This document shows positions 1 to 14,069 of a stretch of DNA of 19,147 nucleotides, piece by piece. A program made the position numbers and the translations under genes. The notes under the pieces were generated by a model. The model saw only the letters and a list, made by a program, of their open reading frames with translations, did no database searches and was not told the DNA's origin. Positions within the stretch are counted from its first letter, which is position 1. Each line of letters starts with the position of its first letter. This DNA comes from Bdellovibrionota bacterium (GTDB lineage Bacteria; Bdellovibrionota_C; UBA2361; JBGSMV01), in the NCBI GenBank assembly GCA_044356455.1, contig JBIKWF010000087.1, positions 1 to 19,147 on the forward strand, given 5' to 3'.

Positions 1-56
1 CCACGCTCATTAGGAAGGAAGAGTATCGGTGGGCTCCTTCAGGTTGGTGAAAGAAC
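1..56. repeat. Diverged direct repeat, copy 1 (may extend beyond the left edge of the window)
   Basis: 49/56 identical by manual ungapped alignment to 6175-6230 (CCACGCTCATTAGG..GGAAGAGTATCG.TGGGC.CCTTCAGG...). Confidence 0.85.
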
Positions 57-534
57 TAATTCCACACTTGAGGAAAGCCTTTGTATCAATATTACTCGAT
101 GCCTGGTCAAACAATTATGTGAATACGAGTAGCGAGGCACTAGGAATGGCATTCTCAACCGCCCAGAGCGCTGTTCAAAAGAATTAGCCTGCTGAAACCA
201 CTTTTCTATACCGCATATAATTCTGGAAGCTACGTAGTTGAAACGGGTTGCCGTTTCATGAAGTCCTATGACCAAATGTGCATTGGGGACTTGTGTCCTC
301 GGTGCGGCGCCGGCTGTCGACGGTGCTGCAAGAATGCAGTTTTTTATGGGTGCTGCGAGCCCTTGAGGCCTGCGTAGTTGCGTTCTTTTCCTTTGTGCTC
401 ATTATCGCTATAACTTCCTTCTTATGCTTCATCAGCAAACGACCATAAATCCTGATTTCGACCGAGCAATGCGCCTTGTTCGAATACATCGTTGAAGCGA
501 AAGCGTAGAGGCCGACATAACTAACGGCAAGTTT

Positions 535-1365
535 GTGGTCTGGTTTTCGGAAGGACCGCTTCAATATCGTGGCCCGTTTACCTTTCCCGACGCGAGTCAT
601 GCGGGAAATGCCGTGAAAGAACTGAACCAGAGCCATGCCAGATCTTCAGTAAAGGTTCTTTCGCTCGGAGCGATGGCTTTGCTGTCAGCGGTCTACAAGC
701 ATGGAGGGGCGGTGCTCTCACTCGCTCCTTGGCGAGAAAGAGCGGATGCTCAGGGCAAGTTTGGGGACTGTGACATTCACTGGGTCCAAAGCGATTTACT
801 CCCTCCCGAAGCCATTGCGCTGCCGAAGGGCACGACGGTGGGAGTACTGCTTAAATCGGTGTGTTCAGATTATGCAGAGCTCGCAGGAGTGCCACTCGAG
901 GAAACGGGATGCCCAGGCACGTTAAATGATTTTGCCTCAATCGCAATGAGCCACGGGTTACAAGAATTAGGCGTGGGCGAGCGCGCGCTGTCTCCAAGGC
1001 GTACACCTTCTTGGCTCGCTGCAGCCGCGGGACTAGCCCTTGCCGCAGCGGGGGTGTTTCAACTATCTCAACGTGGAGGTGATCGCAGCGAAACGGAATT
1101 AGAACAGAGCTTGGGTGCGCTTCGCATGCCGCCAGTTAGGCATGAGAAACCTGGTATTACTCAGGCGGGATATGGGCGAACAATCCCGCGTGCGTCGGAC
1201 GATGCCGCAGGCCTCGCAATCGCAGATTCGCTTCGTGATGAGCATTCCCAAATGCCTCGGCAACATCCTTTCTGGTATCTTCCGTCATATCCTCAAGGAG
1301 TTGATGCAGAGTCGAGACTTCAGGTGAAAATTACTCCACTTACAATTGAGCGAAAACAAGATTAG
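535..1365 (+). CDS. Hypothetical single-pass membrane protein with an embedded flagellin N-terminal-like motif
   Basis: 276-aa ORF with GTG start (start uncertain). Hydrophobic segment WLAAAAGLALAAAGVFQL, followed by RASDDAAGLAIADSLR at 1189-1236. Confidence 0.65.
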   Translation: MVWFSEGPLQYRGPFTFPDASHAGNAVKELNQSHARSSVKVLSLGAMALLSAVYKHGGAVLSLAPWRERADAQGKFGDCDIHWVQSDLLPPEAIALPKGTTVGVLLKSVCSDYAELAGVPLEETGCPGTLNDFASIAMSHGLQELGVGERALSPRRTPSWLAAAAGLALAAAGVFQLSQRGGDRSETELEQSLGALRMPPVRHEKPGITQAGYGRTIPRASDDAAGLAIADSLRDEHSQMPRQHPFWYLPSYPQGVDAESRLQVKITPLTIERKQD

Positions 1366-1465
1366 CCCCCTCCTTCTTTCTATCCTGGCCTCATCGCGTA
1401 TTCACACGCACAAGGAAGGCAAACTAGAATTACCAGGGAGCCTCGTCCAAAATAGAGGACTTCCG

Positions 1466-1766
1466 TTAGTGCCACCCACTTTTTTGAATCGTAAGCAGTT
1501 ATCGGGCAATCGCGAAAGAAGTTTCCAGTTCGGACTGATCTAATTGTGCTGCATGAGTGGGACTGCCTGATTCCACCCACAGGGTTTTCAAGGGAGGTTG
1601 CCTGGAGGGGGAGTTAGTTTGTTTGCTCTTGGAAGAGGAGCCGGTCCGATAGAGAGAGGAATTATACCTCGGCTGACGGGTACGTGACTTTCGTAAATTC
1701 AATTGCTTATCGAGACATTCTCGTTTGGCCCGTGTTGGCAAATGCAAATAAAGTGGGTGGCACTAA
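1466..1766. mobile_element. Non-autonomous MITE/REP-doublet-like element, family A, copy 1
   Basis: Perfect 17-bp terminal inverted repeats TTAGTGCCACCCACTTT (1466-1482) / AAAGTGGGTGGCACTAA (1750-1766). Differs from 5709-6010 by 9 substitutions and 1 indel. No recognisable transposase ORF. Confidence 0.8.
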
Positions 1767-1834
1767 GTAGTGGGCTCGTACTCCCAATCTATTTTGGGGC
1801 CAGTAGGAGGATGGAGGGGCGCCGGCCGAAATAA

Positions 1835-2263
1835 CTACCAGGAGCTCTCACCGATGACGTCAGACCCCTTTCTCGTTGTGTTTTGCGTGGCCTGCCCGAA
1901 GTTTGCATCAGTGGGCGATGGAGGGGAAACATACCGCTTCTTGCAGTCCTGAAGTTTCGATTCCTTACCAGAATCGGCAACGCAGAGCGCCTCGTTTAGC
2001 TCCTCGCAGGTCAATCGACGTGGTGAATTATCTTCATCTTCATCTTCATCGCCGTCTCCAGGTGCCCATCCGGGGGTAGTGGGCGTCAATGGTCCGTCGG
2101 GCCCACAGCGACAGGTACACAGATACTCTAGAGCAACCTCTGCGCTATCATTCCCAACAAAAATTTTTGAGGGAGGGGTTCGTTGTTGGCAGAGAGCTCG
2201 TTGAGGGGATGAAGCCATGAAGACGCACAGCGTCGCAGCAAGCACTCTCAAGATTTTTGCCAT
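1835..2263 (-). CDS. Small Cys-rich putative secreted protein
   Basis: ATG at 2263 preceded by GGGGA. Signal-peptide-like N-terminus MAKILRVLAATLCVFMASS, a CxCxC motif plus three further downstream Cys, and an acidic DEDEDED tract. The longer upstream start (2473) lies inside a repeat element. Confidence 0.6.
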   Translation of the reverse strand: MAKILRVLAATLCVFMASSPQRALCQQRTPPSKIFVGNDSAEVALEYLCTCRCGPDGPLTPTTPGWAPGDGDEDEDEDNSPRRLTCEELNEALCVADSGKESKLQDCKKRYVSPPSPTDANFGQATQNTTRKGSDVIGESSW

Positions 2264-2420
2264 AGTTAATCCCCGTAAACGGTCACAACCCGCAGTTCCG
2301 AGCTTTATGTCGGTGGCCGACCACTTATTCGATAAGTGAATCCTCGGTACGGTTGGCGAAGATCTTGAGCGTCCTCTCCCTTCAAACTTAGTCCACCGCA
2401 GGAGGCACTGGTTCGGAGGC

Positions 2421-2517
2421 ACTGGTTCACCCCAACTCTCTCTTTGCGGATCCGCAAAGCCCCCCCCCGGCAATGTATTCAGTCACTTAGATCCAAAAAT
2501 AGTTGGGGTGCACCAGT
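2421..2517. repeat. REP-doublet/MITE-like element, family B, copy 1
   Basis: IRs ACTGGTTCACCCCAACT / AGTTGGGGTGCACCAGT (1 mismatch), internal perfect palindrome CTTTGCGGATCCGCAAAG (2442-2459) and a poly-C run. Near-identical to 5510-5609. Confidence 0.8.
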
Positions 2518-2874
2518 TAGTGCTCTCCGTAGGGCCGGGGAGTCCATCATTTCCCGGTTCGTAACGCAACGGAAGACCCAACGCCAAAACGTTATCGTCC
2601 AAAATAACCATACCAAAACTCCTTCCTCGAGCTCACGCTCGATAAGTGAACCTTTACACACAACACCCCTCACCCGCGTCGCTACCCGACTCCCACGCAG
2701 AATTCGAGCGAGTTAGGTGAGCGAAGCGGATGATGGATGTTCTACCTTCCACCGAAACAGGATTTTTCAAAGAGCAAAGACCGAAATTTGAAAGCGGGAG
2801 GCTTGAGAGCAGAGAACCGTGACGCGCGAGCGTCGGCTTGTGCAAACCGTCCCGCGATTAACGGCTTATGGATG

Positions 2875-3654
2875 CTACTGGAGTAGGTCCTTGTAGATGC
2901 GATCCGGATTCGGCACCATCGCCGCAAAATGACCGTCTGCATCTACGTGAGCGAGCTCAAATGAGGTCCCTTTGGCAGATCTCGTGACAGAATTGGCTTC
3001 CACGAACTGAGGAGGGGCGCCGGGCTCTGATACTTCGAGCCACACCGGGCCGCGTAGCTCTTCTCCAACCCGAAGCTCTTGCTTTACCCACAGTGGGAAG
3101 GTTGCGAGATGTTCCTTCGTAAAGACAAGCGAGAGCTCGTCGTTTTCGAAGGTAAAGCGGCCTTCGCATGCCGTGATTCTCCCTTCGATTGACGGGAGCC
3201 TCGAATTCAACTCCCGACGATACGGATCCATTAGGAGCACTTGTACTCCCAACGGAGCCCAGGTGTGAAGCCGAGCCAATCGCTTCGCGGGGATTGATCT
3301 AAACTGTTCAACGAGCAGAACGTTCACCCAGAGACTCACGATGCGCTCGCGACGGAAAGCGATAAATTGTCCCCAACTATCCACGCAATTCAAGAAATCT
3401 GAATCCGCACCACCGCACGTTAGCTCGAAGAGGGAGACGGAACCAAGTAGCGTAACTTCGAACAGTCCGCCTTTGGTTGTTTCAATCTCCACGGTTAAAC
3501 CCGCCGGAAGTTCTTGCTCGAGTAGCTCCGGTGCCATGTTTGAAGAGCTAAGGAGATTCATAAGGAATGGTTTTCCTGGCTCAAGCAAGTCGGGGAACGG
3601 CAGGTGTTCAGGCCACCCACCTTTAGCCGCCGGAGGATCCCAGTCGATCAACAT
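2875..3654 (-). CDS. Hypothetical protein
   Basis: Long ORF with globular-looking composition from MLIDWDPP (ATG 3654). Alternative start at 3786. No family motif recognised. Confidence 0.6.
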   Translation of the reverse strand: MLIDWDPPAAKGGWPEHLPFPDLLEPGKPFLMNLLSSSNMAPELLEQELPAGLTVEIETTKGGLFEVTLLGSVSLFELTCGGADSDFLNCVDSWGQFIAFRRERIVSLWVNVLLVEQFRSIPAKRLARLHTWAPLGVQVLLMDPYRRELNSRLPSIEGRITACEGRFTFENDELSLVFTKEHLATFPLWVKQELRVGEELRGPVWLEVSEPGAPPQFVEANSVTRSAKGTSFELAHVDADGHFAAMVPNPDRIYKDLLQ

Positions 3655-4263
3655 AGTGGGGATCCCCGTCTGGTTCGCAGCCTGACCTTCAGTTCGACCC
3701 CTGAAAGTACCCGTCGCACACCTGCTGCCTCTCCTCGCCGCCACCCTTACCTCAACAGGTACGTGGTTAAATTCCAGATACAACATCGGTAATCCCTTCT
3801 GAGAGCTTTGCTCTCAAATCTCGAACACCGGCAAACCTCAGAGAGAACCTTTCTCTCAAGCCTCCTCACTTATTGATAACGCGCCACCTGTAAGGGACGC
3901 AGAACCGTTAAGTGCCAGCGACTACCGCATCTACCCACACAGCGATGCTTCAAGATAACGTATCTCTCGGTACGATCACGGGTGCGGTGGCGCTACTCAC
4001 CCCGCGTAACGAGAAAGATGGTGACGGTAGTCACAAGAATCTTCGAAGAATGCGTAGGCACAACGCGAAGAGGCGCGCTCACCGCTCAGCTCCTCAACAA
4101 CGCCAGCGCCGCAGTCGCTGGTCTGCTCCAAATATTTTGATGGCTTTTGACTATCGATCGAGCCAAGCAATGACGTCACTTTCTCACGAGACGTGTGGTG
4201 AAAGTTGACAATATCCTTCGTCGATTGCTTCCTCTTAGCCCCATTGCTTAGTGATCGAACTGT

Positions 4264-5465: not shown

Positions 5466-5509
5466 TACGTCTCTATTGGTGAATTGTCAGCTCGGTCATT
5501 TGGTGCACA

Positions 5510-5609
5510 AACTGGTGCACCCCAACTCTCTCTCTGTGCGGATCCGCAAAGCCCCCCCCCAGCAATGTATTCAGTCACTTAGATCCAAAATAGTTGGGGT
5601 GCACCAGTT
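5510..5609. repeat. REP-doublet/MITE-like element, family B, copy 2
   Basis: Perfect 18-bp IRs AACTGGTGCACCCCAACT / AGTTGGGGTGCACCAGTT. Same interior as 2421-2517. Confidence 0.82.
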
Positions 5610-5704
5610 AGTGCTCCCCCCAACTTTTTGAGGCTTTTAGGGAAAGCCTCCAGGGACACCCACCTATTGCCCACGTCCAATTCGGACTGAAGTAGGGGAG
5701 GACT
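5608..5704. repeat. Degenerate third IR-bounded unit between B2 and A2
   Basis: Starts TTAGTGCTCCCCCCAACTTTTTGA (resembles both the A and B ends), contains hairpin GAGGCTTT-TAGGG-AAAGCCTC, and ends AGTAGGGGAGGACT (imperfect inverse of its left end). Confidence 0.5.
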
Positions 5705-5708
5705 CCCA

Positions 5709-6010
5709 TTAGTGCCACCCACTTTTTTGAATCGTAAGCAGTTATCGGGCATTCGTGAAAGAAGTTTCCAGTTCGGACTGAACAAATTGTGCTGCATGAG
5801 TGGGACTGCCTGATTCCACCCACAGGGTTTTCAAGGGAGGTTGCCTGGAGGGGGAGTTAGTTTGCTTGCTCTTGGAAGAGGAGCCGGTCCGATACAGAGA
5901 GGAATTATACCTCGTCTGACGGGTACGTGACTTTCGTAAATTCAATTGCCTTATCGAGACATTGTCGTTTGGCCCGTGTTGGCAAATGCAATTAAAGTGG
6001 GTGGCACTAA
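5709..6010. mobile_element. Non-autonomous MITE/REP-doublet-like element, family A, copy 2
   Basis: Same perfect 17-bp TIRs (5709-5725, 5994-6010). About 97% identical to 1466-1766, in the same orientation. Confidence 0.8.
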
Positions 6011-6174
6011 GTAGTGATCTCGCGAAAAAAAGGAGCCACACATTACCTATTTCATTCGGCAGGTGGGGAGCTGCCTTGTAGAGATAGAACTTGAAGTATT
6101 CGACTACTATCATTGTCACGAAGTACTTTCACGACTTCGAGTCGAAGTTCCAGATGCGATTTCTCATATCACCA

Positions 6175-6230
6175 CCACGCTCATTAGGCGGGAAGAGTAT
6201 CGCTGGGCCCCTTCAGGCTGCTGAAGGAAC
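6175..6230. repeat. Diverged direct repeat, copy 2, overlapping the HAD gene stop codon
   Basis: 49/56 identical to 1-56. Contains hairpin CCTTCAG-GCTG-CTGAAGG. Confidence 0.85.
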
Positions 6231-11187: not shown

Positions 11188-12468
11188 TTAGGGCTGAATT
11201 GGGGAAGCAACGGGGATATCCGAAGAGGTTTTAGGAGCCTCCAACTTCGACTTGAGCCCTTTTGTTGCTTTTTCAAGAAAGGGTGCGGCAAAAACCAGAG
11301 CAATTCCTGTAAGCATTAATGCTGACCAGCGGTAGTCGTAAACAACGTCCATAAGGGCCGATACGATCGTCCGAGATCCAATTCCGAAAGTAATCAATCC
11401 AATGGCAGCGAGGCCTATGCTTCTTGTCTGAAGCGCGAAATATATCGCGCATGCGGGTAGAAGTAATGCCAATGAGCCAGCCACTGCAGAGGGAGCGTTC
11501 ATATATAACACGCTCCCAATTGCCATCGTAGCAAAAGCAATCTTGGCCTGAGTGGAATGCAGCGTTTTCCCTGAGGCAAACAAGTATGCTGAAGGAATCA
11601 AATATGAAAGTGCCTGTGCGCCCCAGGCCCCCATCACGCGATTGAGGCCGCTCACTAACACAGCGATGCCAAAACCAAAGAGGAGGTCCGTAGCGATTCG
11701 AACACTGCTGCGCTCTTTCTCGCCGATGGGGGAAACGAATAAATACAACATCGAACTGAAAAGCCCCATAATCGCAAAGAAAAGCGGCTCCGAGAATCCG
11801 TAAAACGCGCCACGTCCAACCATGATAGCGAGAAGGGAAAGTAACACCCCCCTGGCCCACTTGGCTTCAAGGGTTGAGTAATGACTGTTCCTTGTAAAGA
11901 GCGCACGCTCACAGAAGAAAGCGAGGACTGCGGAGACGACTAATATGGTTCCTGCAAGCAAGCCGCTTCTTTCTGGGAAACATAGGAGCGCACCAAGTGA
12001 CAAAAGCAGCGCGGTGTATCCCAGTGGGTTTTTAGGGACGAACACTTTCGCAACAAGTGCCGAGAAGGGCGCGATTACTAGGGTCGCGATAACCCCACCT
12101 GCGAGCGCGGTCATCAGTCCGACGTTCTCGATGCGAAGTGCGGAAGGAACCAAGGCGCTATTGCCACCAAATGCGTTGCAAATGACAGCGCCGAGCTGGC
12201 TCCAGAACACGGGGACCAATCCTAAATACATCATTAAAAGAATTCGCGCGCTGCGCTGATCGCCCTTTCGATAGGAGATCATAAGGCCAAGTGCGGCACA
12301 AAGCGCCAGTATCCCTGAGAATGAGAAAAACCGCTCGACGGCGTCGACTTTTCCAAGCCCCTCGACCATGAGTACGATTGCTCCTATTCCAGTGGATAGT
12401 GCTCCTATTGCTTGGAGCACTTTGACGGTTCCTTCTGGCTTCGTTTTGTTTGCTAGGGTCTTTTCCAT
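11188..12468 (-). CDS. Polytopic integral membrane protein, PspA-associated
   Basis: 426 aa made almost entirely of hydrophobic helices (more than 10 apparent TM segments). AAGGAGG RBS. Starts 29 bp after the pspA-like stop. Confidence 0.85.
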   Translation of the reverse strand: MEKTLANKTKPEGTVKVLQAIGALSTGIGAIVLMVEGLGKVDAVERFFSFSGILALCAALGLMISYRKGDQRSARILLMMYLGLVPVFWSQLGAVICNAFGGNSALVPSALRIENVGLMTALAGGVIATLVIAPFSALVAKVFVPKNPLGYTALLLSLGALLCFPERSGLLAGTILVVSAVLAFFCERALFTRNSHYSTLEAKWARGVLLSLLAIMVGRGAFYGFSEPLFFAIMGLFSSMLYLFVSPIGEKERSSVRIATDLLFGFGIAVLVSGLNRVMGAWGAQALSYLIPSAYLFASGKTLHSTQAKIAFATMAIGSVLYMNAPSAVAGSLALLLPACAIYFALQTRSIGLAAIGLITFGIGSRTIVSALMDVVYDYRWSALMLTGIALVFAAPFLEKATKGLKSKLEAPKTSSDIPVASPIQP

Positions 12469-12497
12469 ATGGCCTCCTTTCGATTTAGGGCAGATGA

Positions 12498-13118
12498 TTA
12501 TTTAAGAAGTTCTTGCAGCTCAGCCTCTAGGGAGGCGCGCTGTTCTGAATCGCTATAGTGAGCTTCGAAGGTGTCGATCGTCGGTTCTGAGGGAGGAGAG
12601 ATGCCCAGTGAGTCCTCCCAGCGACTCAGCATCTCTGAAACGTCAAGCCCCGAAACTTCAGCGGTAGAGGTATGGGCGTCTTGAATCTCGGTGCGTGCTT
12701 TGAGTTCGCGGTGCTTTAGCGTCAGGCTCTTCTGTAGGTTTTGTAGTTCAGTGATGCTGGCGTGAAGTTTTCGGTGAGATGCCTCGGAGATTTCACGTTG
12801 TTTGCCGAGGGCTTCTCGCGTCGCCTTTGCCGCATGGGCTCTCCGCAAACATTCCATCGCAGCATCTTTCTTGCCCTCTGAGCCCTCCTTCTTGGCCCGT
12901 GCAATCCAGGCGCGCTCCTCGGAATCCGCCTTAGCGATATCCTCCTCCGTCTTTTGGAGTGAGCGAGTGAGTGAGCCAAAGGCGATTTGTGCCTGGCGAA
13001 CTTTCTGGTCGAGGTCCTGAAGCGATACCGCGACGAGCGAATCATGATTCTGAAGTTTGGTGACTACCGCGTCTATGGAGCTGTAGGCCGTGACATAAAG
13101 TTTTCTAAATAAGCGCAT
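12498..13118 (-). CDS. pspA: PspA/IM30 family protein
   Basis: 206-aa all-helical coiled coil. Amphipathic N-terminus MRLFRKL..., motif WIARAKKEGSEGKKDAAMECLRR, and C-terminal LEAELQELLK typical of PspA/Vipp1. CAGGAGG RBS. Confidence 0.85.
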   Translation of the reverse strand: MRLFRKLYVTAYSSIDAVVTKLQNHDSLVAVSLQDLDQKVRQAQIAFGSLTRSLQKTEEDIAKADSEERAWIARAKKEGSEGKKDAAMECLRRAHAAKATREALGKQREISEASHRKLHASITELQNLQKSLTLKHRELKARTEIQDAHTSTAEVSGLDVSEMLSRWEDSLGISPPSEPTIDTFEAHYSDSEQRASLEAELQELLK

Positions 13119-13275
13119 AATTCCTCCTGGAAACGAATGACGTTATAGAAGGAGTATGGACAAAAAAGCGTGGCGCGTAGACTCTTAAGTCGTAACGCTG
13201 TAACAGCTTGCAATATGGCACGAGTATTTGCCCGTATTTACAAGGCTTAGGTGCACTTACACTAAGAGCTAATGC

Positions 13276-13292
13276 GTGTTACAATGTAACAC
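13276..13292. promoter_or_regulatory. 17-bp palindromic operator overlapping extended -10-like boxes
   Basis: GTGTTACA-A-TGTAACAC directly abuts the ATG at 13293. Contains TGtTACAAT (+) and TGtTACATT (-). Confidence 0.65.
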
Positions 13293-14069
13293 ATGCAGAC
13301 CTTTCCTCTCTATTTGCCACTCGGGTGCCTGGCGGCTCACACGCAAGCGGGCGTGGGAGGATTTAGACAACGCGAAGTGAAGTTCTTCTCCGAGCTTTTT
13401 TCGAACTGGGTCAACCTTGGTGGCGTGGGAGCGATGCACTCTTTGCACAACACGCAGGTCGCTCGCTATTTGACTGGGTTGGTGGAGGATGCTCAGGCGA
13501 AACCACTTGGCAGATCTCATCCTCCCCATTACCGACTGACGAGGTTGGGAATGTTTTCTCTCCTCTCTCAAGTTACCCTCTGCTCCTACTTGTCGGCACC
13601 GAAGGATTGTCTCCTCGTGTGGTATTTTCTTCGCAGCTACGCAGCGCAGCTCAGACGCATTATCCGCGGTGCTGGCAGCGAATTTTCGCGCGCTCATGCC
13701 CTTGAGCTGGAGCAGCTCTTGGATGTGAAACTCTTTCTTACTCGGCAGCTGCAGTTTGTTGAGCAGGAAATAATTCGATTAACTGAACGCATCGACACAA
13801 CGCATGCCATGCAGCGTGACTTTGCACGATTGCGAATCGAGGGCAGGTCTGCTGCGGAGTGTATTGCGCATGTTGCCAAGTTTTATCCCTATGAGCTTAA
13901 CGCCCAGCGATCCTTTGATGAGCTGCTCTTGACCATTCCGCCCGAGGTAATGGAATGGGAACTAACCGAGGGGGCAAGTATTAAAGCTGAGATGGTCTTT
14001 AGGCCGATTCTTGAGGAATTACGGCGGTTCAATGATCATTTGCGAAGCCTTAAGGGAGAGCCAGTTTAG
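13293..14069 (+). CDS. Hypothetical protein, putative winged-helix transcriptional regulator with coiled-coil C-terminus
   Basis: 258 aa, divergent from the pspA-like gene. LHNTQVARYLTGLVE...HYRLTRLG resembles a wHTH recognition helix plus wing. Heptad-like segment LQFVEQEIIRLTERI. Confidence 0.7.
   Translation: MQTFPLYLPLGCLAAHTQAGVGGFRQREVKFFSELFSNWVNLGGVGAMHSLHNTQVARYLTGLVEDAQAKPLGRSHPPHYRLTRLGMFSLLSQVTLCSYLSAPKDCLLVWYFLRSYAAQLRRIIRGAGSEFSRAHALELEQLLDVKLFLTRQLQFVEQEIIRLTERIDTTHAMQRDFARLRIEGRSAAECIAHVAKFYPYELNAQRSFDELLLTIPPEVMEWELTEGASIKAEMVFRPILEELRRFNDHLRSLKGEPV

Follow-up and report, generated by a model that had tools for sequence, protein, structure and literature searches.

The window analysed here is a stretch of 19,147 nucleotides that makes up the entire contig C23 of a fragmented 4.7-Mb genome (G000, 93% complete) of a Bdellovibrionota bacterium. 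Near its start, the initial annotation described a 276-aa orphan with a flagellin motif. This open reading frame (535..1365, GTG start at 535) and the peptide quoted from it are present, and the start is identical in both recorded assemblies. However, the frame continues upstream to an ATG at 424, unbroken but for one TGA (493..495, codon 24), to give 313 codons on the forward strand (424..1365). The TGA is polymorphic and reads GGA (Gly) in another lake strain (X4), and the alignment with P0008, the only homolog, begins at residue 1 of the 313-codon frame and runs across the TGA codon. Thus, the true gene has 313 codons (P0009, in which X marks the internal stop), the allele found in the window is truncated or broken, and the length of 276 aa has to be given up. 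Its codon usage (0.10-0.12) is like that of the adjoining genes (0.08-0.15). The product is a single-pass membrane protein of a two-member family without a name.

The N-terminal soluble domain of ~196 aa (424..1011), for which no family was found, is common to P0008, with 30% identity over residues 38-236. It is followed by a predicted transmembrane segment (residues 197-215; 1012..1068), which, as the initial annotation had it, is the sole hydrophobic segment upstream of the motif. The segment is Ala-rich and borderline (Kyte-Doolittle 1.61; 1.84 for the P0008 equivalent), and the charge bias around it is weakly N-in, tail-out. It holds AAGLALA (1021-1045), which resembles the AAGLAIA of the motif at 6/7 positions, probably by low-complexity chance. 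Further downstream, SETELEQSLGALRMP (1087..1131) is a segment of the host family rather than of flagellin and pairs with EQQDLSGLRMP of P0008. The SETELEQSLGAL helix had been taken for the L..SLERL-type helix that precedes the flagellin motif, but it lies 15 residues too far upstream for this. It scores 15 against the C148 flagellin of the same genome, at best 29 against two paralogs (8/600 null trials) and 31 against P0008, and since the motif-free P0008 has it, the helix belongs to the host family. The proposed sigma-28 -10 site (GCCGACA at 511; 511..518) likewise falls away, as it lies inside the coding frame at codons 30-32; Asp31, encoded within it, is common to P0008. With what we take to be the sigma-28 consensus, a full sigma-28-like pattern occurs upstream of just 2 of the 23 host flagellins, and no promoter motif common to the 313-codon gene and the flagellin genes was found.

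Among 1.84 billion representatives, the only homolog is P0008 (MBN8549745.1; 288 aa, E 4.8e-7). It shares the N-terminal domain, the transmembrane segment and the LRMP segment (30% identity over ~200 residues), but it has a Ser/Gln-rich tail without either flagellin piece and lies in another gene neighbourhood. A search for homologs that keep both the transmembrane segment and the motif, as the initial annotation had suggested, thus yielded a single homolog with the segment and without the motif, which speaks against a conserved function. The record encoding P0008 (L042) is classed as Bdellovibrionota_B, class UBA2361, in PMC8103865, and the window's bacterium probably belongs there too. When 124 genomes of the class were searched with a two-sequence profile, the family turned up in two of them, namely the window's own and G048 of its order; with the queries used, it was found neither in a same-genus genome (91% complete) nor in three same-family genomes. 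Only the two members were recovered from a 5.8-billion set searched with the ORF query and with alignment A1 (8000 similar-length candidates scored each). A metagenome scan of 220 stretches gave nothing related; four metagenome pattern matches were discarded as chance, with no ORF holding the motif, and viral contigs gave 0 matches to the 16-mer pattern described below. The predicted fold of the protein (pLDDT 38.6) found nothing under E 0.001 with Foldseek, and the best match (Z 6.4, small helical bundles) was uninformative. The PDB profile search gave E 0.33 or worse, and the Atlas no usable match. A match to the anti-sigma factor NF052375 was rejected (14.9 bits against a cut-off of 100; P0008 unmatched).

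The tail of the protein contains two pieces of flagellin. Piece 1 (1174..1236) corresponds to residues 35-55 of P0010, a host flagellin of the short major type (G000:C148; B. subtilis Hag 33-53), that is, the D0-D1 linker and the start of helix ND1a. Here 18/21 residues are identical, and the 16-mer RASDDAAGLAIADSLR (1189-1236; P0010 residues 40-55) is an exact match to both C148 flagellin copies. DDAAGLAIA is present, and positions 36, 37 and 39 are changed; the flagellin-invariant Arg37 is replaced by Thr and position 39 by Pro, neither of which is seen among 24 flagellins. The profile check of the initial annotation was borne out in part: residues 214-240 of the 276-aa form (251-277 of 313) match Flagellin_N positions 31-57 with E 4.3e-4, but cover only 27/139 positions, and the score of 20.8 bits stays below the cut-off of 26.6. 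The suggested DNA comparison with the host flagellins likewise confirmed the protein core (16/16) and gave no sign of a recent copy, as the 16-mer shares only 4/16 and 3/16 codons with the two C148 copies. By comparison, only 2/253 host paralog pairs are 16/16 identical, and these share 15 and 11 codons. In a genome-wide control over 6787 open frames, 438 pairs had at least 12 identical residues, 46 of them isolated. The 16-mer was the sole isolated exact match of at least 12 residues with saturated codons and no longer homology; the remaining isolated matches were DNA repeats or motifs of long-range homologs. The 16-residue match is therefore genuine, and recent copying of an assembled host gene does not account for it.

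Piece 2, ESRLQVKITPLTIER (1309..1353), matches ESRLQVAINSLTVAR of P0010 (residues 221-235; helix CD1, Hag 239-253) with 10/15 identical residues, and ends three residues before the stop. It has 3 identical codons and 27/45 identical nucleotides, and a Pro inside the helix. This piece was first spotted by eye and then tested against nulls. Its score of 46 against whole flagellin at any position was reached by 0/3000 shuffles (maximum 33) and 0/3000 real 42-mers (maximum 37), and the match to P0010 ranked top among 52 flagellin frames. The 23-codon linker between the pieces (1237..1305) has no flagellin similarity in any of the six frames (best scores 11-17, null mean 18). The tail therefore reads flagellin 35-55, an unrelated linker of 23 residues, flagellin 221-235 and stop, with the pieces in frame and colinear. 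Two candidate third pieces were rejected: an out-of-frame LGNILS in the linker scored only 17.2 (null mean 18.1), and further downstream, a match at ~1427-1459 (25.6, null 95% 23.4) runs with its last two codons into the repeat element. After the stop, no significant flagellin similarity was found.

The tail thus has two pieces of a flagellin (PF00669 and PF00700) in their original order. Unlike a flagellin, which is soluble with Flagellin_N at its N-terminus, the 313-codon protein carries them C-terminal to a transmembrane segment, lacks the D0 helices and most of D1, and falls below both Pfam cut-offs. It is not a flagellin and could not build a filament. The claim that the rest of the protein is not flagellin-like was correct in that there is no Flagellin_C domain (no Pfam match, only the 15-residue CD1 piece), but it overlooked piece 2. 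With two colinear pieces, the central claim, that a non-flagellin membrane protein has captured a flagellin fragment, stands firmer than it was made. The tail of this rare membrane protein, in one species, holds a real two-piece flagellin remnant, for which any function is a candidate one.

The 16-mer pattern is a class-wide consensus, with matches in 27 of the 124 genomes. The 29 other loci from the 16-mer search were all true flagellins (30 of the 46 listed places fetched). With the 63-aa tail as query, the 124 genomes gave only piece 1 in flagellin-length frames and no second two-piece protein, and no comparable partial Flagellin_N match was found in five relatives. Recent copying from an assembled host flagellin is excluded, and none of 54 short flagellins from the class qualified as a DNA donor (best 64/99 nt, mean 55.7); a search for an 81-nt match in 91 genomes of the order gave only partial matches of 25-47 nt. 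At 26/33 residues, the host copy is tied with one flagellin each from G048 and G096, which leaves more than one candidate donor lineage. The identical peptide pair is also present in flagellins from another family (L098, L035), so a gene other than the host's own could have been the donor.

The strain comparison covered window positions 1-4000 and contigs of 4 of the 24 listed runs. At position 493, one X4 contig (depth 7.1) has G and an X2 contig (depth 4.2) has the window letter. Judged by this stop allele, part of the population can now do without the gene. The second assembly contains the whole ORF with three residues different, the identical three of which appear in X4. X2 and X4 contigs bridge each junction around the motif (277-1133, 1104-1772 and 1155-1495), with no single one of them reaching from the membrane segment to the motif. 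An assembly chimera, which the initial annotation had named as a possible refutation, is therefore excluded. Contigs of two runs traverse the motif unbroken, so an identical second copy is not evident there at this low depth. The six listed strain differences in the gene comprise three missense changes, one stop/Gly and two synonymous changes, which over 706 nonsynonymous and 230 synonymous sites is near the neutral 3:1 (n=6).

Several other features were noted in the window. Downstream of the gene lies a repeat element with 20-nt inverted ends (1455..1778; second copy at 5698-6022), and a second kind of short repeat with inverted ends occurs at 2421-2528 and 5502-5619. Copies of both kinds are 96% identical; one arm word occurs 9 times in the genome and the other 3 times. 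On the reverse strand, 1835-2473 is a Cys-rich ORF with a hydrophobic leader-like stretch, an acidic run and no family found, and 2875-3786 encodes a 303-aa orphan for which neither a family nor a counterpart in five relatives was found. Contigs of X24, the only RNA run compared, cover window 1-4000 just at 1913-2226, within the Cys-rich ORF, with a 6-nt deletion in the acidic run; this coverage carries no information on the 313-codon gene. At the contig start, positions 1-56 repeat 6175-6230, a 56-nt copy (88% identical) of the end of a HAD-family gene and its downstream region. Within 11188-14069 lies a weak PspA/IM30-like gene (E 4.6e-5, below cut-off), flanked by two proteins that match no family, one a membrane protein of 426 aa and the other divergent and 258 aa long.

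The host shows a large flagellin expansion, with 24 Flagellin_N matches over the cut-off, 23 of them with the DD motif (~260-620 aa). Five relatives (G001-G004 and G048) have 12-28 matches per genome. The host also encodes FlhA, FlgH, two FliD, FliW adjoining CsrA and a second CsrA. Besides the best FlhA-like match on C110, there are two further FHIPEP-family loci (G000:C184:9642-11657 and G000:C7:17051-18784), which are possibly non-flagellar type III export gates.

FliW couples the flagellin level to CsrA. In the B. subtilis study, FliW protects Hag 11-34, 50-72 and 240-260, FlhA-C protects Hag 61-72, 236-249 and 275-300, and the first 60 flagellin residues suffice for FliW binding (PMC6070490). 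Piece 2 falls in the FliW-protected CD1 stretch 240-260 and overlaps the FlhA-protected 236-249, with 5/15 residues changed relative to the host flagellin, and the host has FliW beside CsrA as in that switch. Piece 1, however, lies mostly between the FliW-protected stretches 11-34 and 50-72, with edge contact only; moreover, the B. subtilis ligand is whole cytoplasmic flagellin, and binding here is putative. In the filament, CD1 takes part in both 5-start and 11-start contacts, and Hag Ala47 is located at the 11-start interface (PMC5643327 and PMC3605589). Because of these CD1 contacts and because Ala47 is located in piece 1, flagellin itself is a second candidate partner. Going by antiparallel geometry rather than coordinates, the two pieces would be staggered in the monomer and would not form the native hairpin. 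We take piece 1 to lie in the flg22 region, with presumed limits for the epitope. It overlaps two known segments in their C-terminal portions, the FliC 26-47 export signal (PMC6337784) and the flg22 epitope (PMC11608315; Ile38 numbering). Unlike both, piece 1 is not N-terminal, follows a membrane anchor and has a first half that is missing or changed; behind the anchor, a role as an export signal is unlikely. A literature search, in which subscription papers were thinly represented and entries were judged by their listing and the opening of the abstract, returned no case of flagellin pieces in unrelated proteins or of FliW mimics.

We propose, with a confidence a little short of even, that the gene is chimeric and that its tail is a collapsed flagellin, which was maintained at the protein level as a look-alike and is dispensable today. 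DNA from a short major-type flagellin of the class would have taken the place of the variable C-terminal tail in a rare single-pass membrane protein, either in one fusion followed by deletions or in two grafts; what is seen today is two colinear in-frame pieces. Both pieces would then have been kept at the protein level while synonymous sites and flanks drifted, and the tail may have served as a membrane-tethered flagellin look-alike that bound a normal flagellin partner. In favour of this reading are the divergence of the pieces from host flagellin (pS 0.86-0.87, pN 0.10-0.23), the failure to find a donor at DNA level, the in-frame and ordered arrangement of the pieces around an unrelated linker, the fit of piece 2 to the FliW- and FlhA-protected stretches, the absence of SNPs from either piece in the covering contigs (0, not significant), the flagellar partners encoded by the host, and a simulation of neutral decay from an unsampled donor, in which a perfect 16-run persisted in only 2-4% at an equal number of changes. 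Against it, 10% neutral decay from such a donor matches the overall identity (28.6 vs 28/36), the only homolog lacks both pieces, the family is confined to 2/124 genomes, the stop at codon 24 segregates, and the gene is without an RNA contig in the single RNA run compared. The loss of Arg37, the Pro in piece 2, the near-neutral strain differences, the failure to find the family in the same-genus and same-family genomes, the weak charge bias towards a tail outside the cytoplasm and the position of piece 1 mostly off the FliW-protected stretches count against it as well.

Within the look-alike reading, FliW is the best-named candidate partner, a choice that would be right only with a rather small chance. 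The corresponding model, in which selection favoured a membrane-tethered two-piece mini-flagellin for its binding to FliW (or the export gate), is unlikely. It would be a self-mimic regulator made of pieces of the cell's own structural protein, through which a membrane protein could tune the FliW-CsrA switch in a bacterium with 23 flagellins to manage. Its main obstacle is that a weakly predicted periplasmic tail would be out of reach of FliW and FlhA.

A close rival, only slightly less probable, is that the pieces do nothing: a flagellin gene of an unsampled lineage or a lost paralog was fused to the tail, collapsed by deletions and is now decaying. Transfer into a variable island may have brought in the gene as a whole. 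The patchy family, its motif-free homolog, the stop allele and the near-neutral strain differences all fit neutral decay, as do the Pro and Thr residues, which no flagellin shows at these positions, and the overall identity expected at 10% decay. The orphan neighbour missing from five relatives and the repeat elements beside the gene point the same way, and the 12-28 Flagellin_N matches per related genome would supply raw material. Because the 16-mer is a class-wide consensus, a foreign donor explains the saturated codons without selection after capture; saturated synonymous sites could also predate capture and have arisen on the flagellin branch. However, a neutral remnant needs several frame-keeping events and a linker that is non-flagellin in every frame, it leaves the perfect 16-run as a rare outcome, no donor was found, and no identical second copy is evident (low depth).

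Convergent mimicry, in which flagellin-like motifs arose by point changes without DNA capture, is improbable. The codons are no closer to any flagellin than those of random paralogs (0.29 vs 0.34), and the P0008 tail has IP and ADSR at roughly corresponding places; yet the score of this tail against flagellin does not rise above the null level (24, null mean 20), and 16 identical residues with a second colinear piece are far simpler by descent. Still less probable is an outward decoy for an external flagellin sensor or binder, such as a flg22-type receptor, a protease or a phage. The overlap of piece 1 with the presumed flg22 region, the tail weakly predicted outside the cytoplasm and the two extra FHIPEP-family loci, which suggest contact with other cells, would agree with it. 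However, with an inner-membrane anchor the tail would end up in the periplasm, the epitope is changed in its RIN part, piece 2 lies outside flg22, and the organism was found in lake-water runs. A chance match or assembly chimera, to which the sub-threshold Pfam score and a window that is a whole 19-kb contig of a fragmented genome might point, has a negligible probability and is refuted by the two assemblies, the junction-bridging contigs, the uniqueness in the genome-wide control and the 0/6000 null trials for piece 2.

The reach of the finding is limited to one species, with one motif-free homolog and a stop allele in the population. If the pieces are neutral, the locus would be a clear snapshot of how a collapsed paralog turns into a new gene tail, in a lineage whose genomes each carry 12-28 flagellin-family copies. 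If they are functional, the look-alike would feed into flagellin homeostasis in a novel way, and it would provide a natural minimal map of the features that a flagellin partner requires.
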